In this document: positions 3,937 through 57,077 of the stretch, piece by piece | Layout of the letters: each line of letters starts with the position of its first letter | Numbering within the stretch: position 1 is the first letter of the stretch | NCBI RefSeq assembly: GCF_054482595.1 | Contig: NZ_CM137008.1 | Reading direction: 5' to 3' (one strand) | Length of the DNA stretch: 64,000 nucleotides | Notes under the pieces: model-generated | Databases searched by the model: none | Seen by the model: the letters and a program-made list of their open reading frames with translations, nothing else | What the model was told of the DNA's origin: nothing | Translations under genes and position numbers: made by a program

Positions 3937-4410
3937 ATGAACTACGAGATTAAGCAGGAAGATAAACGTACCGTTGCAGGTTTCCATCTTGTTGGCCCGT
4001 GGGAGCAGACGGTAAAGAAAGGTTTTGAGCAGTTGATGATGTGGATAGATAGCAAAAATATTGTGCCGAAGGAGTGGGTTGCTGTCTATTACGACAATCC
4101 GGATGAAACACCCGCCGAAAAATTACGCTGCGACACCGTCGTGACGGTACCGAATAACTTTACGCTCCCCGAAAACAGTGAGGGCGTCATTCTGACAGAA
4201 ATTTCAGGTGGTCAGTATGCGGTGGCGGTGGCTCGTGTAGTCGGTGATGATTTTGCTAAACCCTGGTATCAGTTCTTTAATAGCCTCTTGCAGGACAGTG
4301 CCTATGAAATGTTACCAAAGCCCTGCTTCGAGGTTTACTTGAACAATGGCGCGGAAGATGGGTACTGGGATATCGAAATGTATGTTGCGGTGCAGCCAAA
4401 ACATCACTAA
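3937..4410 (+). CDS. sbmC: DNA gyrase inhibitor SbmC/GyrI
   Basis: 157 aa, recognised SbmC sequence; synteny. Confidence 0.9.
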
Positions 4411-34774: not shown

Positions 34775-36175
34775 TTATTGTTCGAACTTCGGAGCAATCA
34801 GATTATCCAGATTGAATGTCTTCTCCCATTCTTCCTGTGTGAGTAGCTTACGTTCGACAACCACTATCTGATGGAGGGATTTGCCTGTATGGTATGCTTC
34901 GTGCGCCATTTCAGAACACACCTTATATCCCAGATGTGGCTTCAGGAGAGTCACAATACCGCAGGAATGCATTACCATCTCTGCAGTTCGATCGGAATTA
35001 GCTGTAATGCCATCAATGCATTTAGTTCGGAGTGTGTTACAGGCATTCGTCATCACCTTGAGTGAGGTGAACAGCGCAAAGGTGATGACCGGCTCCATAA
35101 CGTTAAGCTCAAGCTGACCAGCAGATGCCGCCAGCATCACTGTGGTGTCCAGCCCCTGAACCAGGAAGCAAGACTGGTTTGTTACTTCCGGGATAACGGG
35201 GTTAACCTTACCAGGCATAATGGAAGAACCCGGTTGCAATTGAGGCAGGTTAATTTCAGCCAGGCCGCAACGGGGGCCTGAAGCAAGCAGTCGAATGTCA
35301 TTACAAACCTTGGTAAGCTTCACAGAGAGGCTCTTCATGGCCGAACTGAGTGCAACATATGCACCACAGTCGCTTGTGGCAGCGATGAGATCTTCACTGT
35401 TCCTGAAATTAATGCCTGTGATCTGGGCCAGATATTTCACGGCTAAAGCGGGATAATCCGGGTGAGCGGTAACACAGGTACCAATCGCAGTAGCACCAAG
35501 GTTTACAACCCGCAGGTGTTCCTGTGCATTACGGATGACCCGAATTTCATCATTAATTGTAAAACCCCAGCCATGGAACTCCTGGCCGAGAGTCATTGGC
35601 ACTGCATCCTGCAGGTGAGTACGTCCCATCTTGAGCACTGTGCTGAACTCGTCAGCCTTTTTGTAGAATGCTCCTACGAGGTGTTCAACAGCTTCAAGCA
35701 ATACATTGCTTCGCAGCAGTAATGCCAGATGTAATGCTGTCGGATATGTATCATTGGTGGACTGACCAAAATTAGCATGGTCGTTTGGCGAAACGCGTTT
35801 GTAATCCCCTTTAACGCCACCAAGTTTTTCTGCAGCAAGATTGCAAATCACTTCGTTGCAGTTCATATTGGTTGACGTTCCGGCTCCCCCCTGAAGCCAG
35901 TCGGTCACAAACTGTTCCCGGTACTTACCATCAATTAATTGGTCGCAAGCCCAGATTAAAGCATCCGCAACATCAGCAGGAATTGTACCTAACTCCTTAT
36001 TAGCCATCGCAGCTGCTTTTTTCACATAACCGAAGGCAATGATGAAGAAAGGCTCCTGACTCATTGGCATTTCAGTGATATGGAAATTATCTTTTCCACG
36101 AAGTGTCTGAACACCATAATAGCAATCATCCGGAATTTCACGCTCACCAAGGAAATCGCTTTCAATACGAGACAT
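34775..36175 (-). CDS. Aspartate ammonia-lyase family protein (copy 1)
   Basis: 466 aa, fumarate-lyase signature GSSIMPGKVNP; about 99 percent identical to 55677..57077. Confidence 0.85.
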   Translation of the reverse strand: MSRIESDFLGEREIPDDCYYGVQTLRGKDNFHITEMPMSQEPFFIIAFGYVKKAAAMANKELGTIPADVADALIWACDQLIDGKYREQFVTDWLQGGAGTSTNMNCNEVICNLAAEKLGGVKGDYKRVSPNDHANFGQSTNDTYPTALHLALLLRSNVLLEAVEHLVGAFYKKADEFSTVLKMGRTHLQDAVPMTLGQEFHGWGFTINDEIRVIRNAQEHLRVVNLGATAIGTCVTAHPDYPALAVKYLAQITGINFRNSEDLIAATSDCGAYVALSSAMKSLSVKLTKVCNDIRLLASGPRCGLAEINLPQLQPGSSIMPGKVNPVIPEVTNQSCFLVQGLDTTVMLAASAGQLELNVMEPVITFALFTSLKVMTNACNTLRTKCIDGITANSDRTAEMVMHSCGIVTLLKPHLGYKVCSEMAHEAYHTGKSLHQIVVVERKLLTQEEWEKTFNLDNLIAPKFEQ

Positions 36176-36397
36176 AATATTCTAACTCCATTATTTGAAA
36201 ACAATGTGACAATAACAAATTGTTTAACCGGAGCTATGCTCTCGGAATTTGAATTCTTACATCATTGAAATAACATGTGATATCAATCTGTCAGAATTCT
36301 TCTGACAGTCAGTAACTGAATGCAGATTAACTGCCTGACTAATTATCAAATAGTAACTCTGTAACTACTTCCATAAAGAATGAAAATTATGATTCTA

Positions 36398-37696
36398 TCA
36401 GACCATCATTGGTGCAATCACAAACCCAAATGTCACTCCTGCAATAACACCACCCAACCCGGGTAGCATAAATGGGTGATTTAATAAATAATTGCCCACA
36501 CGGGTTGTGCCGGTAGTATCAAATTCCATCGCGGCGAGTGATGTTGGATACGTTGGAAGCACGAATACTCCCGTAACGGCAACATAAGATGCAAGAATTG
36601 CCCAGGTTGGTATGTTGAGTGCTACAGCCAGAGGAATAATTAACGGCGTAGTCGCTCCCTGTGAGTAAAGTAAAGCGCAGGTAAAAAAAAGAACTAATGC
36701 TAAAAGCATCGGATAAGTTTGTAAAATATCACCGGCGATATCTTTGATCTCAGTTAAATGCGCATCAATAAAGGTGGTACCTAAGGTTACAATACCAAGA
36801 ATCACTGCCAGCGAACTCATTCCAGCACGAAATGTGGAGGTCAGAATAATGTCATCAGTAGACATCTTACACAGTATTACCATCAGGCAGGCAGCAGAGA
36901 GCATGCAAATAATAATAATATCGCGCGTTTCCATCGGTTTGCTGATATCAAAACCCGGACGCAATTGGGGGAATGCAGCAAGAATAACAATGGCGATCGT
37001 CGCCAGCATGAATAATCCGACGGAAAGCGTTGCACCAGGTTTGATGCTGTTATTATTCTCGTATTTTTGCACCAGACCTTTTTGCAGACGTTCAAGATAT
37101 ACTTCGTCATCTTGTAATTCACACCCCTGTCGGGAGGCGATAAAAGCAGCAACCATCGCGGCGACAAAAGAGGTGGGAAGGCATACCGACATCACCTGAA
37201 TAAAACTGACGCCATTAACCTCCATAATAGTGAGCATAGCTGCCATTGCGGCACTGATTGGTGAGCCAGAAATTGCAACCTGTGAGGCGACAACTGAGCC
37301 AGCGAGTGTGCGGGAAGGCCGGATACCGGACTCTTTTGCTACTTCAGCAATTACCGGCAGTGTGGAGAAAACAATAAACCCGGTACCGGCCATAATGGTC
37401 ATTAACCAAGTGATAATCGGTGCGATTATGTTGATATATTTTGGGTTACGTCGCATGAAATTACTGGCTAAACGTACCAGATAATCCATCCCACCTGCCG
37501 CCTGTAAGGCTGAAGCTGCCACAACTACGGTCATAATAATCAGGATCACATCGACTGGCGGTGATCCCATAGGCAGACCAAATCCCAGAGTCAGGATCGC
37601 AAGGCCAAGACCGCCGCATAAACCAATGCCGATTCCTCCCTGACGAATACCAAAAAATATTGCGCCAAGTACAACGATAATTTCCAGCCAAACCAT
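36398..37696 (-). CDS. Anaerobic C4-dicarboxylate transporter, DcuA/DcuB family
   Basis: 432 aa polytopic membrane protein with DcuA-like sequence. Confidence 0.8.
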   Translation of the reverse strand: MVWLEIIVVLGAIFFGIRQGGIGIGLCGGLGLAILTLGFGLPMGSPPVDVILIIMTVVVAASALQAAGGMDYLVRLASNFMRRNPKYINIIAPIITWLMTIMAGTGFIVFSTLPVIAEVAKESGIRPSRTLAGSVVASQVAISGSPISAAMAAMLTIMEVNGVSFIQVMSVCLPTSFVAAMVAAFIASRQGCELQDDEVYLERLQKGLVQKYENNNSIKPGATLSVGLFMLATIAIVILAAFPQLRPGFDISKPMETRDIIIICMLSAACLMVILCKMSTDDIILTSTFRAGMSSLAVILGIVTLGTTFIDAHLTEIKDIAGDILQTYPMLLALVLFFTCALLYSQGATTPLIIPLAVALNIPTWAILASYVAVTGVFVLPTYPTSLAAMEFDTTGTTRVGNYLLNHPFMLPGLGGVIAGVTFGFVIAPMMV

Positions 37697-37754
37697 GATG
37701 TTCTCCGTTGTAAATATAATCTTTGTAAAATAACTTTCTGGCTGTGATTTAGAA

Positions 37755-38474
37755 TTATTGAGTTAAATGTTGATCTTTTCCGATACGATTTTCATACCAT
37801 TTTATTCCTGCGCGAACGAGTGAAGCGGTTGAATCAATATAGCGTAAAGGTTGATCTTTAACGGCTTGTGACAGAATAATGGGAATTTCCGTACAACCAA
37901 GAATCAAGATCTCTGCTCCGCGGGAAAATAAATTTTCAGCCTGCTCTTCCATCAATTTTTGCGCATGTGTAACATTTCCCGCTTTAAGTGAATAAATGCT
38001 TTTCATCACATTTTTTTGGCCATCTGCATCCGGGGTGATATAGTTAAACCCTAACGATTCAATTCCTTTCTGGTATAATCCCATATACAGCGTGGCATCA
38101 GTGGCCAGGAGGCCAATTCTAGTTTTACCACAGACGCGAACTTCATCGACCGTAGTATCTATGATACTTAGTATATCAATATGGCAAGCATCTTTTAGTT
38201 CTTTAAACCAATAGTGTGCGGTATTACAGGGAATAACAATACATTCTGCTCCTGCATCTTCCAGTTTATGCATATAGTCACGCATAACGGGTAAAGGCGA
38301 GAGCCCGTTATGCATTAATGCATCGGTACGGTCAGGAATATCCGGGATAGAAGAAATAATTAAAGGTATATGTTCTTGATCTCGTTGTGCTGCTGTAAAG
38401 GTGACAAATTTATTAAATAAGTCGACAGTGGCGGCCGGCCCCATTCCACCGAGCACACCGATTAAACCTTTCAC
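37755..38474 (-). CDS. Aspartate/glutamate racemase family protein
   Basis: 239 aa; two catalytic Cys motifs (IPCNTAH, LGCTE). Confidence 0.8.
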   Translation of the reverse strand: MKGLIGVLGGMGPAATVDLFNKFVTFTAAQRDQEHIPLIISSIPDIPDRTDALMHNGLSPLPVMRDYMHKLEDAGAECIVIPCNTAHYWFKELKDACHIDILSIIDTTVDEVRVCGKTRIGLLATDATLYMGLYQKGIESLGFNYITPDADGQKNVMKSIYSLKAGNVTHAQKLMEEQAENLFSRGAEILILGCTEIPIILSQAVKDQPLRYIDSTASLVRAGIKWYENRIGKDQHLTQ

Positions 38475-38813
38475 AATACTTACCTCTCAGAAAATCAATG
38501 CTCATAAACTTAAAAAACCATTTCTCCTTTTTTAACAGTCTCTAAAGGCTATGAGAAATGCAATGATGTACAATGCAATGCAAGACTTGCATGATGTAGT
38601 TTTGCAATATACATGAACCATATACTATTGTTGCATGAAGACCTATCATAATGATGAAAATAAACGCTTTTGGGAGAAGTGTTAAACTGGTTTAGATACA
38701 GAAAACGAATGGATTATGCATAAAACGAATAACTTAAATATGCTATCTGCATTCATTACCCCGGTTTTCGGGGGGTATACTAACTAAAATTTGATAATAC
38801 TTGGATAATAGAA

Positions 38814-39713
38814 ATGAAAAATATAGAGACCAAATGGTTATATGATTTCCTGACACTGGAAGCCTGTCGCAATTTCTGTCAGGCAGCAAAAGATCGTAAC
38901 CTTTCACAACCAGCATTCAGCAGACGAATAAAAGCGTTAGAGTCAGCTATAGGTGTTGTTTTGTTCGATCGTACAACCTCTCCTTTACAATTAACTGAAG
39001 AGGGTAGGCTTTTTCACTCCCAGACACGCAGTTTAGTGCAACAGCTTGAATGCAATCTGAATGAGTTAGGGGGGGATAATTCATTCAATTTGCCTAATAT
39101 TAAGATTGCAGCTGCGCACTCATTATCCCTCAGCATGCTACCTAAACTTCTGCACTCACTCACCACCTTAGGCGGAGACTTTATCTATCATGTTGAGGCT
39201 ATTGATGTCGTCCAGGCCGTAAATACGTTACGAGAAGGGAAGAGTGACTTTATTATTTCATTTCGAGATGAGGAGTTTATGCAATCGCCATTTTGTTGTA
39301 TAAAACTGTTTGAATCTGAGTTGTATCCGGTATGTGCTGCTGATCAACAGGGAAAACCGATTTTCGATCTTACCAATTCACAGGCTCCTTTGCTCGACTA
39401 TACTCCAACTTCTTATATGGGCAGACTGGTTAATCGTCATTTGGCAGAACAGGGAGGGATAGCCGGACACACAATATTGGTATCTTCAATGAGTGAACTA
39501 CTAAAAAATATGGCACTCAATGGACTTGGTATTGCCTGGCTCCCTCTCTGGTCAATCGCGGATGAACTGAACACAAAACGACTTGTGTGTCCGTGGCCTG
39601 CTAAATGGGCAGTGCCTATTCAGGCTTATATTTATCGTATGGATACTCGGCTGAACAAAACGGCTGAACACTTTTGGACGATTTTACGAAATAACATTAA
39701 AGAGAATAGCTAG
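38814..39713 (+). CDS. LysR-family transcriptional regulator
   Basis: 299 aa; N-terminal HTH (QPAFSRRIKALE); divergent from racemase operon. Confidence 0.85.
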   Translation: MKNIETKWLYDFLTLEACRNFCQAAKDRNLSQPAFSRRIKALESAIGVVLFDRTTSPLQLTEEGRLFHSQTRSLVQQLECNLNELGGDNSFNLPNIKIAAAHSLSLSMLPKLLHSLTTLGGDFIYHVEAIDVVQAVNTLREGKSDFIISFRDEEFMQSPFCCIKLFESELYPVCAADQQGKPIFDLTNSQAPLLDYTPTSYMGRLVNRHLAEQGGIAGHTILVSSMSELLKNMALNGLGIAWLPLWSIADELNTKRLVCPWPAKWAVPIQAYIYRMDTRLNKTAEHFWTILRNNIKENS

Positions 39714-40222
39714 AAACATCGTGGACAGTTTTTGTTGAGCACGACAAATCCACGTTTTTCTGGGGGTGAAGGGGGGGAATTCGTTAAACTGGATGTCTTT
39801 TGCTTTAATCAGTTCATCTCCTTCAGGATAATTCTGGCCATTGAGATCACTTTGAGAGGTATTTTTTTCTCTTTTCACATAGTAAATAATAACATTGTTT
39901 AATTAATAACAGAAAATATACTAAAATCAATAATTGTAATAATAAATTATTTGTTGTCCCAGATAAGTTAAGTGTCATTAAAATGCTGGACAATCCTCGC
40001 GTAACGGTATTTAATGACTACAGCACGTTCCAGGAAAAGCAGTGGAAGCAAATATTGGTCATTATGTCGAAAACACCGGAAACGTACTCTATATTGTGTA
40101 GTCATTTATTCAAATGACAGCGTATAAACAAATTGATCAGAATCACATTTTTTTGTGAAAATCATTGTCGAGAGGCAACATTTCATAGTAAGTGTATCCT
40201 ACAGGTCATGTATAAAACCTAC

Positions 40223-40932
40223 ATCATGTAAACAAACTCATCGAATTGCACCTCCTGTTTGTGGAGGTGCTTTTTTGTGCACAGCTCCCCAGCCAGGCTG
40301 GGGGTTCCGGAAAGCTTTCAGTTTTGAGCCAGTTATTAAAACCTCTTTTGATTTGTTAAAACACCTTGCGGTATGGCAACAGCAAGTGTCAAACAAAAAA
40401 TCAAAAGGGGGACCCAATGGGGAACGAAAAGAGCTAGCGCACCCCGATGGAACTGTAAATATCACATAGTTTTTGCGCCAAAATACCGAAGACAAGTGTT
40501 CTACAGAGAGAAGCGTAGAGCAACAGGCAGTATTTTGAGAAAGCTGTGTGAGTGGAAAAGCGTACGGATTCTTGAAGCTGAGTGCTGTGCAGATCATATC
40601 CATATGCTTGTGGAGATCCCGCCCAAAATGAGCGCATCCGGCTTTATGGGATATCTGAAAGGGAAAAGCAGTCTGATGCTTTACGAGCAGTTTGGTGATT
40701 TGAAATTCAAATACAGGAACAGGGAGTTCTGGTGCAGTGGGTACTAAGTCGATACGGTGGGTAAGAACACGGCGAAGATACAGGATTACATAAAGCACCA
40801 GCTTGAAGAGGATAAAATGGGAGAGCAGTTATCGATTCCCTACCTGGGCAGCGCGTTTATGGACCGTGAGTAACGAAGTTGGATGCAAATGTCAGATCGT
40901 GTGCGCCTGTTAGGGCGCGGCTGGTAAGAGAG
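40223..40932 (+). mobile_element. IS200 (IS200/IS605 family) inserted in dgoT
   Basis: Left-end hairpin cacctcctgtttgtggaggtg; TnpA with HxH motif; dgoT reading frame runs into IS sequence at about 40932. Confidence 0.7.
40373..40870 (+). pseudogene. tnpA: IS200 Y1 transposase TnpA, frameshifted
   Basis: Track ORF 124 aa (WNCKYHIVFAPKYRR...DHIHMLVEIPPK); canonical N-terminus and C-terminus lie in other frames. Confidence 0.65.
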
Positions 40933-41391
40933 CCTTATAGGCGCATGACCAGACGTATAAAAACCAACGGCAGAAGCGCGTTCATGTTCCGGGAACCAGC
41001 TGGTCACCATCCGGTTATTGGTCGGGAAAGCGGGCGCTTCGAAAATACTGGTTATCGCGCGCAGACCAATTAATGACATTAATCCCGTGGCAAAGCCCTG
41101 GAATAACGTCGCCACTGACCAGCCAAATATCGCAATAAAATAAGTCACGCGTGAACCTACGCGATCTAAAAACCAACCGCCGGGGATCTGACATAGCGTA
41201 TAAAGCCAGGCGAAGGCCGAAAATACATAGCCCATTTCCGCTTTGGTAATGCCGAACTCTTCCTGAATATGGGCGGCAGCCACGGCCAGGTTAGCGCGGT
41301 CAACATAACAAATGACCACCGTAATAAAGATCATCACCAGCGTCAGATAACGCCGACGCCCCGGCTTTGCTGCATTAACGGGAATATCCAT
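40933..41391 (-). pseudogene. dgoT: D-galactonate transporter DgoT, 5' fragment truncated by IS200
   Basis: [35 protein letters not shown]... MFS N-terminal region; 3' part of gene absent. Confidence 0.8.
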
Positions 41392-41510
41392 AGCGAGCTT
41401 TCTCCTGATTTTGGGCATAGCGAAGCCGCTCACCATGCCCTGTAATTTACAGAGGGTTATATTTTTGTATTGCTGTTTTAGTGCCCGATGAGGGGCTTAC
41501 GTGGCAGGAA

Positions 41511-42659
41511 TTACCACTCTGCTACGCTGTTATCTTCATGACGCCAGAGCGGATTACGCCAGTCCGGGGCATTTTTACTGAACTCAATAACTTTAGCTTC
41601 GTCGATTTCCACGCCTAAGCCCGGTTTCGTTAGCGGTTTAAAGAAGCCGCCGACCATGCTGAAGTCCTCTTTGTTTTTCACAAAGTCGAGTAACTCCGCG
41701 CCTTTGTTGTAATGAATGCCCATACTTTGTTCCTGAAGTACGGCGTTATAGGAAACAAAGTCGATATGCAGGCAAGCTGCCAGTGCAATCGGTCCGAGCG
41801 GACAGTGCGGCGCAAGGGTCACGTCATAGGCTTCTGCCATTCCGGCAATTTTGTAGCATTCGGTAATACCGCCTGCGTGGGAGAGATCCGGTTGCAGAAT
41901 CGAAATACCACCCGCCTCCAGCACACGTTTAAAATCGAAACGTGAGAACATGCGCTCACCCGCCGCCAGTGGAATATGCGTTTGTGCCGCCAGTTTCGGG
42001 TAGTATTCGGCCTGTTCTGCCAGCACCGGCTCTTCAATAAACAGCGGGCGATACGGTTCCAGTTCTTTAATCAGTACTTTCGCCATCGGCGCGCTGACGC
42101 GACCGTGGAAATCAAGACCAAACTCAATCTGATTGCCAAAAGCTTCACGAATTTGTGCCACGGTGTTGACCGCCGCATCTACCGCGCGGGAGTTATCAAT
42201 TAGCCCCAGTTCTTCACAACCATTCAGTTTGAAGGTATCAAAACCGATTTCGCGCAGGATTTTTATTCCGTCGATAACATTCGCCGGACGATCGCCGCCG
42301 ACCCAACTGTAGGCTTTAATTTTGTCACGCACCAGGCCGCCCATCAGTTGCCAGACCGGCGAATTCAGCACTTTGCCTTTGATATCCCATAACGCCTGGT
42401 CGATCCCGGCAATGGCGCTCATCAGGATTGGACCTCCACGATAAAATCCGGCGCGATACATCACTTGCCATAAGTCATTGATGCGCGATGGATCCTGACC
42501 AATCAAATAGTCACCCAGCTCGTGAACTGCCGCTTCCACCGTACGGGCGCGGCCTTCGATCACGGGCTCGCCCCAGCCGACCACGCCTTCATCGGTTTCA
42601 ATTTTCAGGAACATCCAGCGGGGAGGTAAACGATACGTGGTAATTTTGGTGATTTTCAT
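41511..42659 (-). CDS. dgoD: D-galactonate dehydratase
   Basis: 382 aa enolase-superfamily protein; operon context dgoRKAD. Confidence 0.9.
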
Positions 42660-43273
42660 TGCACTGCCTCTCGATACGCCTTAACAAATGCTGCTGCCTG
42701 CTGCGCGGTGCGTTCTACGGACTGCCCGGCGCGATAGAGATCGCTGCCTAAGCCTGCCCCTGCACAACCTGCGTCTATCCACTGCGCCAGGTTTTCTGGC
42801 GTCACGCCGCCAACGGCAAAGACTGCGATGTCCGGTGGTAATACCGCTTTTAACGCTTTGATGTATTGCGGACCAAAAGCCGATGACGGAAATATTTTCA
42901 GCGCCTGAGCGCCCGCGTCGAGCGCGGTAAAGGCTTCGGTCGCCGTCGCGCAGCCGGGGCAAACGGTCATGCCGTAGCCCACCGCACGGCGGATCACTTC
43001 ACTATGGATATTGGGCGTAACGATGAGCTGGCAGCCCATCCTGGCGAGCACATCGACCTGTTCAGGTTTCAGTACCGTACCTGCGCCAATCAACGCCTTG
43101 TCGCCGTACGCATCAACGATGGCGGGAATGCTCTGCTCCCATTGTGGGGAATTCAGCGGGATTTCAACTGCGTCGAACCCGGCGTCAATCACCGCGCCAA
43201 CATGCACCAGCGCCTCGTCGGGCGTAATGCCGCGCAAAATGGCGATCAGCGGGAGTTTAGTTTGCCACTGCAT
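42656..43273 (-). CDS. dgoA: 2-dehydro-3-deoxy-6-phosphogalactonate aldolase
   Basis: 205 aa KDPG-aldolase family; operon context. Confidence 0.88.
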
Positions 43274-44135
43274 GAGCGATGCTCCTTATACCAGCCTGAA
43301 ATGCCTTGTCGCCCGCCACCACCGCCACGTCGCAACCCATCGCCTGAAAGGCTTGCTGGTAGCGCGCGGTCAGCGATGTTCCGGCGACAAGGGTGATGGC
43401 GTGTTGATGGGTCACATAGTCGCGCATACTGGCAACCTCTGCGCCAATCAACAAACCAGAGAGAAATTCGCTGACCTGTTCGCGGGGAAGCGTTCCCAGC
43501 ACATGCGAGGCGCGAACTTCAAAAAGCTGCGGCAATATGGCGGGCGCATTAAGGCCACGCTCAAGGCCAGCCGCGAAGGCATCGGCAGAGTTTTCCTGCG
43601 GCGGCAAACCTGCGCCAATCAATGAGTGATTTAACAGTAAATGATGTAATTCACCGGTCATTACGGTGCGAAAATCGTTGATTTGCTGGCTATCGGCCTG
43701 CACCCATTTGCAATGGGTTCCGGGCATAACATAAAGAGAGGAAGGAGCCAGAGCACGCGCGCCGATCAATTGTGTTTCTTCGCCGCGCATCACATTGTGG
43801 TTATCGTCATGAGAAACGCATAATCCGGGAATAATCCAGATATTGTCGCCAACCGACGTTAATTGTTCGCCAATAGACGAAAAACGGACAGGAACAGATA
43901 AATACGGCGCAACTTTCCAGCCGACATTGCTGCCAACCATTCCTGCCATTACCACTGGCGTTTTCTCTTCACGCCAGTCGGTCGTGACTTCTGCTAACAC
44001 CGCAGCCGGAGATTTTCCGTTCAGGCGCGTGACGCCTGCTTCTGATTGCCTGCTCTCCAGGCAGTGGTCGCCCTGATAAAGCCAGGCGCGCAGATTGGTC
44101 GATCCCCAGTCAATTGCGATGTAGCGAGCTGTCAT
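43257..44135 (-). CDS. dgoK: 2-dehydro-3-deoxygalactonokinase
   Basis: 292 aa; operon context. Confidence 0.88.
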   Translation of the reverse strand: MTARYIAIDWGSTNLRAWLYQGDHCLESRQSEAGVTRLNGKSPAAVLAEVTTDWREEKTPVVMAGMVGSNVGWKVAPYLSVPVRFSSIGEQLTSVGDNIWIIPGLCVSHDDNHNVMRGEETQLIGARALAPSSLYVMPGTHCKWVQADSQQINDFRTVMTGELHHLLLNHSLIGAGLPPQENSADAFAAGLERGLNAPAILPQLFEVRASHVLGTLPREQVSEFLSGLLIGAEVASMRDYVTHQHAITLVAGTSLTARYQQAFQAMGCDVAVVAGDKAFQAGIRSIAHAVAN

Positions 44136-44821
44136 GTGATTTCCTTTAACCTTCGTGTCGAGCTGGCGATCATGGTAAGCGCCGCCTGCTCTGCCGCATC
44201 GCCGTCCTGATGCCGTATCGCATCGAACAGCGCCTTTTGTTCCTGGAGCGTTTGCGGCATGTTGGCCTCATCACCCATCCAGGTTCGTTCAAATACCGCC
44301 CGCTGCAGCGAACTGATCGCAATGCTAAGTTGCTGTAACACCGGATTATGTACCGACTGCAGCACCGCCTCGTGGTAGCGAATATCCGCTTCGTTAAACG
44401 CTTCGCGGTCCTGATTGTTGGCAATCATCTCGTTCAGCGCCGATTCAATCTGCGCCAGATCGCTGGAAGTCGCGCGCTCTGCTGCCCAACGGGCAATCGC
44501 CGGTTCCACCAGATTTCGCACTTCGCTCATGGCACTGATAAGTCGTGGGTCGTAGTCGTTTTCCAGCACCCATTGCAGTACGTCAGTGTCGAGGTAATTC
44601 CACTGGTTACGCGGTGCCACAAACGCGCCGCGATAACGTTTCATTTCAATCAGCCGCTTCGCCATCAGCGAACGGAACACCTCACGGATGATGTTGCGCG
44701 AGGTTGCGAACTCCTCACAGAGCTCCGCCTCAGCCGGAAGCGGCGAGCCTGGCACGTATTTGCCGTGAACGATCTGTTTACCCAGCGTAATGACGATGCG
44801 ATCGGTTTTATTGAGAGTCAT
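44132..44821 (-). CDS. dgoR: GntR-family regulator of galactonate operon
   Basis: 229 aa, N-terminal GntR HTH, FCD C-terminal domain. Confidence 0.88.
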   Translation of the reverse strand: MTLNKTDRIVITLGKQIVHGKYVPGSPLPAEAELCEEFATSRNIIREVFRSLMAKRLIEMKRYRGAFVAPRNQWNYLDTDVLQWVLENDYDPRLISAMSEVRNLVEPAIARWAAERATSSDLAQIESALNEMIANNQDREAFNEADIRYHEAVLQSVHNPVLQQLSIAISSLQRAVFERTWMGDEANMPQTLQEQKALFDAIRHQDGDAAEQAALTMIASSTRRLKEIT

Positions 44822-45173
44822 GGAGAGTCCTTGTGCTCTGTATGTTCTTCTCTACTTTACCCCGATCGATGCATAACGCGGCAACTTTGTAGTACCAGCG
44901 TGATAACGTTCGCGTTTGCTGTGTGCGTAATGTAGTACAAGCTTATATTGCTGTACTACAATTTAGATCGCAAAAAGAACAATGCATAAAAAAATGACAT
45001 GCGTCGGGCAGAAATGGAAAAGGGATATCAGGCGCTAAACAGGAGGGAAAGAAGAGTATGCTTTCAACGACTTAGTACTCAGACAGCAGCTTTTCCAGCG
45101 TCAGCGATGCGAATGAGGTAGTTCTGATTCATGACCGTTTTTATAATCCGGCTATGATATTTTTACCACATTG

Positions 45174-47923: not shown

Positions 47924-48480
47924 GATTTCCGGGGCGCTTCACTTAGTTATTAATTAAATACCCCCCCGTTTCTTAAGTGGATTTGTTTATTCACATCTCG
48001 TGAATATTAGAACATTATATGATTGTACATCCATATAGAGTTCCGAGGCAGAACGAGAGTGAATCATTGATTGATGCCAACCATAAGGTAATTATCTGGA
48101 AGAGGCCATAGTCTTCCGGAAGATATGAAAATAATATTTTCTTTTGTTCTGCGTCGTGTTATTTTTTCTTTGTCCGTTGGCAAGACGGATAGATAAATAT
48201 TAAAACAAACAGACAAGATTCAGCATAGTTTACCTTCCGTCCCCTGCATCCTGGGGATTTTTTTTACTCAGTGATGGTAATCATACAGCCACAGATAACG
48301 GGAGCGATGTGTATTTTTCGGATCCACAACAGGACTGTTTTGAACAGAGGTATATTTTCCAGCAGTGACTGTCACTGTGGTAGCAAAATAAATATCCTCC
48401 GGCATAGCCGGAGGTTTTTCAAATGGGTGATGCTGCCAACTTACTGATTTAGTGTATGATGGTGTTTTTGAGGTGCTCCA

Positions 48481-48756
48481 GTGGCTTCTGTTTCTATCAG
48501 CTGTCCCTCCTGTTCAGCTACTGACGGGGTGGTGCGTAACGGCAAAAGCACTGCCGGACATCAGCGCTATCTCTGCTCTCACTGCCGTAAAACATGGCAA
48601 CTGCAGTTCACTTACACCGCTTCTCAACCCGGTACGCACCAGAAAATCATTGATATGGCCATGAATGGCGTTGGATGCCGGGCAACCGCCCGCATTATGG
48701 GCGTTGGCCTCAACACGATTTTCCGCCATTTAAAAAACTCAGGCCGCAGTCGGTAA
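48481..48756 (+). CDS. insA: IS1 InsA
   Basis: 91 aa, recognised InsA sequence. Confidence 0.9.
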
Positions 48757-49178
48757 CCTCGCGCATACAGCCGGGCAGTGACGTCATCGTCTGCGCGGAA
48801 ATGGACGAACAGTGGGGATACGTCGGGGCTAAATCGCGCCAGCGCTGGCTGTTTTACGCGTATGACAGGCTCCGGAAGACGGTTGTTGCGCACGTATTCG
48901 GTGAACGCACTATGGCGACGCTGGGGCGTCTTATGAGCCTGCTGTCACCCTTTGACGTGGTGATATGGATGACGGATGGCTGGCCGCTGTATGAATCCCG
49001 CCTGAAGGGAAAGCTGCACGTAATCAGCAAGCGATATACGCAGCGAATTGAGCGGCATAACCTGAATCTGAGGCAGCACCTGGCACGGCTGGGACGGAAG
49101 TCGCTGTCGTTCTCAAAATCGGTGGAGCTGCATGACAAAGTCATCGGGCATTATCTGAACATAAAACACTATCAATAA
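48675..49178 (+). CDS. insB: IS1 InsB (normally expressed as InsAB' by frameshift)
   Basis: 167 aa, recognised InsB sequence. Confidence 0.85.
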
Positions 49179-49549
49179 GTTGGAGTCATTACCCGCTGCA
49201 GGTATAAAATGAAGGTTTTCTGATTTTTCAGGGGCTATTGCAGGCCCCTTTTTACATCATAAATAATGATATCACTTAATGTATTACAAAATGTTATAAC
49301 CAGGGATATTCCCAGAATTTATAATTTCCTCCTGTACTTTTCACCATGACACAGAAACGCTATACATCGCGGTATTTCTGCAGGGTACGGGCTGGATATG
49401 GGTAAGCGTCTCGGTAGAGAGACGGTTAATGAGTCTAAGAATTACTCTTCTTTTAGCTGTGAAATAAGGAGGCGTTAAGAATATTTATTAAATAAAGGCC
49501 CGCTTTTAAAATGGGCCTTAAGGGCAAGACGATGTATAAAATATTTTAT

Positions 49550-54811: not shown

Positions 54812-55676
54812 TGAGATGCCTTCTTCAACATTTTCCAGATTTTAGGGACAGTTTATTAACACCTTCTGACTCTGAAGAACGTGAATTTATGCTATGTTCA
54901 GGCTGTCATTTTTCCAAGAGAGAAATGATAATTATGAAGAGCCTTTGCATGATTGAACATAAAATACAGACTCCATTACAGTATGGCGTTTTTTTAGCTT
55001 GTGATGATTAATGCCGTTACACCCTGAAAGACGATTTAGTGATCAAATCATCTAAAAATAATTAATCATAATGGATGTTAAAATCCATGATCTAACTCAA
55101 ATTACAAACCATTAAAGCGGAAGATGGAGTGGAAACATTACGTTTTCTACTCTATTCCAAGATTTATCAATTAGAAGTGCAATAACATTCCCGTGTAAAA
55201 ACTCTTATCTTAATAAGAATCACCATGAGTGACTATATCTACAACGCTGGAAAACCTAGCAGAGATATAGGTTTTCTATGGTGGTAAACAGGTTGTTTTT
55301 CTGAAGGATGTGACCAAACCGGGATGCTATTATAAAATAGTTCTACTTAATCATGATTTAAAAAATCAGCATTAATAATAAGTTTGATTGCGGAATTGTT
55401 TTTTTTGATCTTAATCATATTAGTGCAGCGTTATCTGCATATTTCGGGCTTTTACTGGTTATATTTGATTGCTAAATAACCCACTAATTTTAACGTTATA
55501 AAAATGTGCTTGATATCACGTTTTAAGTTTATCTTATTAGTTTAAATATATTCCATTAGATGGTAATGGTTATGTCATCTGGTGATTATAAGTATTCATT
55601 CTTAATGTTGGATAAGTGTTTTATGAAAACAATTTGTTATTGTCACATTGTTTTCGAAAAATGGAGTTAGAAAATT

Positions 55677-57077
55677 ATGTCTCGTATTGAAAGCGATTTC
55701 CTTGGTGAGCGTGAAGTTCCGGATGATTGCTATTATGGTGTTCAGACACTTCGTGGTGAGGATAATTTCCATATTACTGAAATGCCAATGAGTCAGGAGC
55801 CCTTCTTCATCATTGCCTTCGGTTATGTGAAAAAAGCAGCTGCGATGGCTAATAAGGAGTTAGGTACAATTCCTGCTGATGTTGCGGATGCTTTAATCTG
55901 GGCTTGCGACCAATTAATTGATGGTAAGTACCGGGAACAGTTTGTGACCGACTGGCTTCAGGGGGGAGCCGGAACGTCAACCAATATGAACTGCAATGAA
56001 GTGATTTGTAATCTTGCTGCAGAAAAACTTGGTAGCGTTAAAGGGGATTACAAACGCGTTTCGCCAAACGACCATGCTAATTTTGGTCAGTCCACCAATG
56101 ATACATATCCGACAGCATTACATCTGGCATTGCTGCTGCGAAGCAATGTATTGCTTGAAGCTGTTGAACACCTCGTAGGAGCATTCTACAAAAAGGCTGA
56201 CGAGTTCAGCACAGTGCTCAAGATGGGACGTACTCACCTGCAGGATGCAGTGCCAATGACTCTCGGCCAGGAGTTCCATGGCTGGGGTTTTACAATTAAT
56301 GATGAAATTCGGGTCATCCGTAATGCACAGGAACACCTGCGGGTTGTAAACCTTGGTGCTACTGCGATTGGTACCTGTGTTACCGCTCACCCGGATTATC
56401 CCGCTTTAGCCGTGAAATATCTGGCCCAGATCACAGGCATTAATTTCAGGAACAGTGAAGATCTCATCGCTGCCACAAGCGACTGTGGTGCATATGTTGC
56501 ACTCAGTTCGGCCATGAAGAGCCTCTCTGTGAAGCTTACCAAGGTTTGTAATGACATTCGACTGCTTGCTTCAGGCCCCCGTTGCGGCCTGGCTGAAATT
56601 AACCTGCCTCAATTGCAACCGGGTTCTTCCATTATGCCTGGTAAGGTTAACCCCGTTATCCCGGAAGTAACAAACCAGTCTTGCTTTCTGGTTCAGGGGC
56701 TGGACACCACAGTGATGCTGGCGGCATCTGCTGGTCAGCTTGAGCTTAACGTTATGGAGCCGGTCATCACCTTTGCGCTGTTCACCTCACTCAAGGTGAT
56801 GACGAATGCCTGTAACACACTCCGAACTAAATGCATTGATGGCATTACAGCTAATTCCGATCGAACTGCAGAGATGGTAATGCATTCCTGCGGTATTGTG
56901 ACTCTCCTGAAGCCACATCTGGGATATAAGGTGTGTTCTGAAATGGCGCACGAAGCATACCATACAGGCAAATCCCTCCATCAGATAGTGGTTGTCGAAC
57001 GTAAGCTACTCACACAGGAAGAATGGGAGAAGACATTCAATCTGGATAATCTGATTGCTCCGAAGTTCGAACAATAA
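55677..57077 (+). CDS. Aspartate ammonia-lyase family protein (copy 2)
   Basis: 466 aa, differs from copy 1 at 3 residues; GSSIMPGKVNP signature. Confidence 0.85.
   Translation: MSRIESDFLGEREVPDDCYYGVQTLRGEDNFHITEMPMSQEPFFIIAFGYVKKAAAMANKELGTIPADVADALIWACDQLIDGKYREQFVTDWLQGGAGTSTNMNCNEVICNLAAEKLGSVKGDYKRVSPNDHANFGQSTNDTYPTALHLALLLRSNVLLEAVEHLVGAFYKKADEFSTVLKMGRTHLQDAVPMTLGQEFHGWGFTINDEIRVIRNAQEHLRVVNLGATAIGTCVTAHPDYPALAVKYLAQITGINFRNSEDLIAATSDCGAYVALSSAMKSLSVKLTKVCNDIRLLASGPRCGLAEINLPQLQPGSSIMPGKVNPVIPEVTNQSCFLVQGLDTTVMLAASAGQLELNVMEPVITFALFTSLKVMTNACNTLRTKCIDGITANSDRTAEMVMHSCGIVTLLKPHLGYKVCSEMAHEAYHTGKSLHQIVVVERKLLTQEEWEKTFNLDNLIAPKFEQ

Follow-up and report, generated by a model that had tools for sequence, protein, structure and literature searches.

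The DNA analysed here, hereafter the window, is a stretch of 64,000 nucleotides (NCBI RefSeq assembly GCF_054482595.1, contig NZ_CM137008.1). On its minus strand the list of open reading frames gives four complete dgo genes: dgoR, encoding a GntR/FadR repressor (229 aa, 44132..44821), dgoK, the kinase (292 aa, 43257..44135), dgoA, the KDPGal aldolase (205 aa, 42656..43273), and dgoD, the galactonate dehydratase (382 aa, 41511..42659), the last showing no difference from the island copy of this gene in relatives. The initial annotation, which had called dgoRKAD intact, was right on this point, since all four reading frames are full-length. Upstream of dgoR, at 44822..45080 (minus strand), lies a copy of the yidX-dgoR intergenic region with its paired TTGTAGTACA / TTGTACTACA inverted repeats, as delimited by the extent of the blastn match and by alignment to the native upstream region. 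These four genes and their control region are identical or nearly so to those of relatives in which the dgoT gene is undeleted. With its DgoR-operator/promoter region intact, island dgoRKAD is probably still galactonate-inducible, to judge from sequence. Downstream of dgoD, the operon ends in a 5' fragment of dgoT (40946..41436, minus strand), which runs into a remnant of the insertion sequence IS200C.

The dgoT fragment begins at 41436 (41391 for the K-12-type start) and retains codons 1-163 of 445, down to 40946. The initial annotation had described about 155 residues of DgoT followed by IS200 sequence; the truncated frame does enter the IS, but its length is 163 residues in the 445-aa form or 148 in the 430-aa K-12 form. 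A tblastn search with the full-length island DgoT found residues 1-164 at 98.8% identity, with the match ending at 40945/40946, and no further dgoT-like sequence within the 64-kb window, in particular none to the left of the IS200C. The resulting open reading frame of 198 aa (41436..40840, minus strand, from the list of open reading frames) is a chimera of 163 DgoT residues and 35 residues from the antisense strand of IS200C. Pfam MFS_1 was recognised on its residues 36-163, and PGAP labels it in relatives as 'MFS transporter, incomplete, missing C-terminus'. The identity of the gene is further supported by the SNP list, by its place as the final gene of the dgoR-K-A-D-T operon, in the window as in relatives, and by its sequence identity to the characterised DgoT: the undeleted island protein matches PDB 6E9N over all 445 residues (E = 7.5e-296). 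DgoT is a D-galactonate:H+ symporter of the MFS anion:cation symporter family and a homologue of SLC17. The DgoT structures (PDB 6E9N and 6E9O) comprise 12 TM helices in two six-helix bundles, both of which are required, with substrate contacts at Y44, R47, Y79 and Q164 in one bundle and at Q264, S370 and N393 in the other (PMC6532931). The product of the window spans about TM1-4 and its last DgoT residue is G163; everything from Q164 onward is missing, and with it the complete 12-TM fold and the joint contribution of both bundles to the binding site. Because it ends at G163 and lacks Q164, Q264, S370 and N393, the 163-residue stub is a pseudogene fragment that cannot work as a 12-TM MFS transporter. 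The stub also carries a private GGT>AGT substitution at window position 41049 (codon 130, G130S), in TM4. This position lies three residues ahead of the proton-coupling E133 of DgoT, and the change is consistent with drift after inactivation.

The IS200C remnant occupies 40277..40946 (plus strand). IS200C belongs to the IS200/IS605 family (Y1/HUH, 707-712 bp). Alignment of the window and of a relative, FDAARGOS_497 (L001), with five intact copies and their flanks gave a length of 712 bp for the intact element, from GTGCACAG… to …GGAGGATATTTATTT. The window copy keeps 670 bp of it, at about 96% identity to the intact copies, that is, with about 4% substitutions. It shares with them the transposase domain, the left-end hairpin (kept at 40287-40303), the left-end / tnpA 5'UTR RNA element of Rfam STnc490 (40284..40407, plus strand; 122 bits against a gathering score of 56) and a target site made of a hairpin and a T-run. 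It differs from them by two frameshifts and a nonsense codon in tnpA, by a 3-bp deletion and by the loss of the last 37 bp. Indeed, the tnpA pseudogene (40417..40873, plus strand, delimited by alignment to intact copies and by Pfam) lacks the intact frame of 152 codons found in WP_000526135-type copies: 1-bp deletions after 40434 and 40442 end the frame from the ATG at 40417 after six codons, and an in-frame TAC>TAA stop lies at 40745-40747. The Y1 (HUH) transposase domain is still recognisable in a 124-aa open reading frame at 40373-40747 on the plus strand (Y1_Tnp, PF01797, E = 5.5e-30), and PGAP describes the identical tnpA copy of relatives as 'frameshifted; internal stop'. The frameshifted transposase reported initially is thus borne out, with a nonsense codon in addition. 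The 3-bp deletion lies beside the left-end hairpin, together with two substitutions, at 40284-40286. Elements of this kind have sub-terminal hairpins at both ends and no terminal inverted repeats; the right-end hairpin, CCTCCGGC-TAT-GCCGGAGG when folded in FDAARGOS_497, is present in that genome and in the intact copies and is deleted in the window, where the last 36-37 bp are gone. Since tnpA is dead and the right-end hairpin deleted, the window IS200C is neither autonomous nor mobilisable in trans. A hairpin in FDAARGOS_497, CCTCCGGCTATGCCGGAGG, had been considered as a terminator of dgoT; this reading was rejected, as the hairpin is the right-end hairpin of IS200C and is common to all copies.

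The left end of the element lies at about 40277, and not at 40223 as first annotated. Directly 5' of it, at 40248..40276 (plus strand), the terminator scan recognised a terminator-like hairpin of the host (GCACCTCC-loop-GGAGGTGC) followed by a T-run, with a DNA fold of -8.9 kcal/mol (z -3.5). We read this hairpin and T-run as the target context of the IS, outside the element itself: each of five other IS200C copies (L002-L006) lies directly 3' of a different GC-rich, terminator-like hairpin with a T-run. Terminator-like sequences upstream of IS200/IS605 elements have been reported (bioRxiv 10.1101/2025.07.22.666184). At one of these five sites (L005) two IS200C form a tandem pair, the second being inserted immediately behind the right-end hairpin and T-rich tail of its predecessor.

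How dgoT came to be truncated can be read from its relatives. A megablast of window positions 39700-41600 against 5426 complete E. coli genomes gave full-coverage matches in two pieces, spanning 2869 bp as against 1901 bp in the window. In one of these genomes, FDAARGOS_497, the same tnpA pseudogene ('frameshifted; internal stop') is followed by an intact gene for a 445-aa MFS transporter and then by dgoD-A-K-R; the IS200C ends at position 4284 of the L001 record and the stop codon of dgoT lies at 4368, so that the IS is 83 bp outside the gene. The window equals this sequence minus 968 bp, with flanks 99.7-99.95% identical by pairwise blastn (window 36700-40946 against L001 1-4247, 99.95%; window 40946-44600 against L001 5215-8869, 99.73%). 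The deletion junction lies at 40946..40947, corresponds to L001 4248..5215, was confirmed by reading the sequence, and shows a microhomology of 1 bp (T). Its endpoints fall 37 bp within the right end of IS200C and at codon 164 of dgoT, and what was lost comprises 37 bp at the right end of IS200C, the whole 83-bp spacer and, from the 3' end of dgoT, about 848 bp. The view that the rest of dgoT is missing and that a deletion was involved therefore stands, these 968 bp being absent relative to FDAARGOS_497.

That an IS200 insertion truncated dgoT does not hold. The undeleted allele, in which dgoT is intact and this dead IS200C lies 83 bp downstream from it, was found in about 112 complete E. coli genomes. 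It was thus a deletion, and not the insertion, that truncated dgoT, because these relatives keep the same dead element outside the intact gene; neither the window nor the ancestral allele has the IS within the coding sequence, and the comparison indicates that IS200C was never inside dgoT. Apart from the lost right end, every lesion of the window IS200C is also found in the undeleted allele, which implies that the IS was dead before the deletion took place. When a simulated IS-free junction was searched for, no IS-free empty site appeared among the matches listed (about 112 genomes), the IS always lying between the two pieces. The alternative raised at the outset is that IS200 transposed into the only dgoT gene of the strain and that an adjacent deletion then removed the distal part, leaving a strain with no uptake of, or growth on, D-galactonate. 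The layout of the window agrees with it, as the dgoT frame abuts the IS200 and the 3' part of the gene is missing from the window. However, it is hard to reconcile with the genomes that carry the identical element outside an intact dgoT and with a tnpA that was already dead in the undeleted allele. Moreover, with 37 bp missing from the right end of the IS, the junction does not coincide with an IS terminus, where an IS-mediated adjacent deletion should start. A deletion starting exactly at the terminus had been entertained when other IS200C copies were matched only up to 40946, and was rejected, since intact copies run 37 bp further.

The same breakpoint bears on the possibility that TnpA acting in trans from other IS200C copies cleaved this copy at its right end, with a sequence inside dgoT serving as a pseudo-target for the joining. 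Such a transposase could be available, as many E. coli genomes have up to 36 IS200-related places. Y1 transposases of the IS608/IS200 family cleave 3' of the right-end hairpin. The breakpoint, however, lies 5' of this hairpin, intact copies extending 37 bp further, and the breakpoint on the dgoT side (between …CAAACT and GACC…) is not preceded by a hairpin and T-run as at other targets; we consider a cut in trans hardly credible. Recombination between two IS200 copies was rejected as well: as far as the breakpoint the surviving copy does not differ from the undeleted allele, and its own right end is gone. Judged by the breakpoints, the most economical mechanism would be one illegitimate deletion of the RecA-independent type. 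We therefore favour the following scenario, in three steps. First, IS200C would have inserted just 3' of the terminator-like hairpin, 83 bp downstream of the stop codon of the island dgoT. Second, it would have decayed in place, acquiring frameshifts, a nonsense codon and about 4% divergence from active copies. Third, a single illegitimate deletion of 968 bp would have taken the right-end hairpin of the IS and the spacer, along with two thirds of dgoT on the 3' side.

The junction is found in a contiguous form, with a 400-bp junction probe, in 100 of the 5426 complete genomes, isolated from chicken, duck, swine, human and water. Its presence in 100 genomes shows it to be real and inherited, not an artefact of assembly. 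It has also been annotated already: the truncated dgoT is known as a pseudogene in 100 RefSeq genomes.

We then considered the location of the cluster. In strain ECCWS199, the region equivalent to the window lies at 1.80-1.86 Mb, between hisG/sbcB/dacD/yeeA and mosaic metabolic genes that are broken by IS66, IS3, ISL3, IS4 and IS256 fragments. The cluster is thus flanked on one side by his-sbcB-dacD-yeeA and surrounded by debris of IS66, IS3 and ISEc31. The same ECCWS199 chromosome carries the native locus, dnaA…yidX-dgoR-K-A-D-T-cbrA, at 8.5-13.3 kb, with an intact dgoT of 445 aa. Homology between island and native loci covers the yidX-dgoR intergenic (promoter) region, where it ends on that side, dgoRKADT and 16 further bases. 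Nucleotide identity is 97.2-97.5%, with no indels in the genes and a dN/dS of 0.03-0.2 (0.03 for dgoD). The window copy resembles the native dgoRKADT operon of E. coli K-12, near oriC, in gene order, in the upstream region with TTGTAGTACA / TTGTACTACA and in proteins that are 1-8 residues apart; it differs from it in having IS debris instead of yidX and cbrA, a dgoT cut to 163 codons and a dead IS200C downstream. These comparisons identify the dgo cluster of the window as a second, island-borne copy of the operon and not as the native chromosomal locus. The same module occurs on a conjugative IncFIB/IncI-gamma plasmid, pWP4-S18-ESBL-07_1 (NZ_AP022088.1, L016 1444-12456), where an aspartase-like gene, a Dcu-type transporter gene, the LysR gene 'HypT' and the dead IS200C accompany an intact dgoT-D-A-K-R. 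This plasmid is a possible vehicle for the spread of the module between lineages. In the literature, no second dgo operon and no link between dgoT and IS200 was found beyond the listing of the dgo region as a K-12-specific island ('regulator protein for dgo operon', PMC2749873).

What does the truncation mean for growth on D-galactonate? A probe spanning dgoK-dgoR gave 5212 places in 5025 records, that is, about 187 genomes with two copies, so that roughly 187 of about 212 island-bearing genomes (about 88%) have both. Among the genomes carrying the deletion, the native yidX-dgoRKADT-cbrA locus was present in all five that we inspected, and its dgoT was intact in four of them. All five native dgo genes are intact in ECCWS199, AH25 and SFE8. 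WP4-S18-ESBL-08 combines a truncated island dgoT with a native dgoT interrupted by Q284* (CAG>TAG; L012 5056-6393) and is predicted to have no functional DgoT. In GD33, native dgoD carries a frameshifting deletion of roughly 32 bp and native dgoT is intact, and its island has an intact dgoD and a truncated dgoT (L015 3733-4849; L017 5765-6913). The pathway of this strain would require both loci, as a case of reciprocal decay. Since the cluster is a second copy and the native locus is usually present in relatives, a galactonate-negative phenotype, as initially predicted, does not follow from the truncation itself, and the window alone is insufficient to decide it. The two findings that the first prediction had named as fatal to it, an intact dgoT copy elsewhere and an IS200 outside the coding region (in the earlier allele), both turned up in relatives. 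The prediction would hold for a minority of genomes. Of the 5426 complete E. coli genomes, 413 have no native operon, O157:H7 among them. The native-empty allele consists of cbrA, a 114-bp diverged remnant of the dgoT 3' end and yidX (for example L008, NZ_CM188746.1, 9017-9130). In at least EC974/EC1515, DSM 103246, ABW_A19 and APEC37 this allele occurs together with a truncated dgoT in the island; they therefore have dgoRKAD without any dgoT, and the galactonate-negative prediction would hold there. EC974/EC1515 belong to lineage ST219 (PMC6046403). This minority is what remains in favour of an insertion of IS200 into the only dgoT of the strain; as the cluster is a second copy, accompanied by the native locus in every carrier inspected and in most island-bearing genomes, we regard such an insertion as highly improbable. 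The presence/absence polymorphism of dgo (K-island KI#161 / K-loop#267, absent from O157:H7) is another route to the loss of galactonate genes in E. coli. The two differ in that the polymorphism affects the native locus, from which the whole operon is gone, whereas in the window an accessory copy has lost its transporter only.

The dgo genes of the window themselves contain a hint of a native copy in the same strain. At sites diagnostic for island or native origin, 55 of 59 are of the island type. Four consecutive sites in dgoK (44017-43965) are of the native type, and three more down to 43935 match the native haplotype of ECCWS199 and GD33. Together they form a private cluster of seven substitutions (43935-44017, minus strand) with an island-type site on either side, at 43908 and at 44273; the cluster is absent from all 5426 complete genomes (best match 99.1%). 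The patch resembles a recent tract of ectopic gene conversion, 83-364 bp long, from a co-resident native dgoK; in principle its source could instead be foreign DNA. Because the patch implies a co-resident native operon, we infer that the source strain quite probably retains it, outside the 64-kb window, and is not galactonate-negative by this lesion. The island enzymes would then plausibly depend on the native DgoT for galactonate uptake.

Altogether, the window very probably carries an accessory, mobile second dgoRKADT operon in a decaying island, in which a 968-bp deletion removed part of a redundant gene. Little or no phenotype is expected from this decay, as most relatives also have the native operon near oriC. 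One could also imagine that the loss was selected, the removal of a second DgoT, or the production of the 198-aa stub, being advantageous through the cost of a membrane protein or the load of galactonate and 2-keto-3-deoxygalactonate. The truncated allele is indeed frequent: about 212 complete genomes bear the island, and 100 of these (about 47%), from poultry, pigs, humans and water, carry it. Its backgrounds differ, as five carriers have four different native DgoK proteins between them and one carrier lineage is ST219 (PMC6046403), and island dgoRKAD is intact in every carrier examined. However, all carriers share a single junction, with no independent recurrence, which fits one neutral event spreading with the island. 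Moreover, the island is decayed throughout, with IS fragments and pseudogenes, and native genes decay in some carriers too. A selected loss therefore seems very unlikely to us, and we retain the decay of a redundant gene as the explanation.

The main value of this analysis is a correct annotation; where a locus is an accessory duplicate, a 64-kb window is not a safe basis for inferring a phenotype. The truncated allele predicts a Dgo+ phenotype in most backgrounds and a Dgo- phenotype in the few where the native operon is missing or broken. More tentatively, we speculate that the two interchangeable dgo operons, one native and one on a mobile island or plasmid, may behave as a redundant pair, with ectopic conversion, reciprocal decay and the island sometimes serving as the sole copy, although we would not yet give this idea an even chance. 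The truncated allele would then be a DgoR-regulated enzyme module in need of the native DgoT, and the pair, if it behaves in this way, would be a small natural case of duplication-degeneration-complementation at the operon level. D-galactonate use has been linked to the adaptation of E. coli to the gut, with dgoR mutations in mouse-gut evolution, in work cited in PMC12288454. Strain typing and metabolic modelling could therefore draw a modest benefit from a catalogue that records, strain by strain, whether zero, one or two dgo operons are in working order.

Judging by gene content beyond the dgo genes, reshuffling and erosion of the island are evidently under way. Two segments of the window (1-20473 and 48425-49194) are not collinear with ECCWS199 (L009, L010), and about 13 kb at 7.4-20.5 kb differ in content from that strain. 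Two ECCWS199 segments are missing from the window. One is an integrase/prophage remnant that separates sbcB from dacD; the other, of about 8 kb, follows ISEc31 and holds an MFS transporter, a LacI regulator, a nucleoside hydrolase, MgtC and IS4/IS256 debris. Finally, the island part of the window contains two aspartate ammonia-lyase-like genes (34775-36225 and 55627-57077), about 99% identical and inverted relative to each other, each adjoining a gene for a Dcu-type C4-dicarboxylate transporter.
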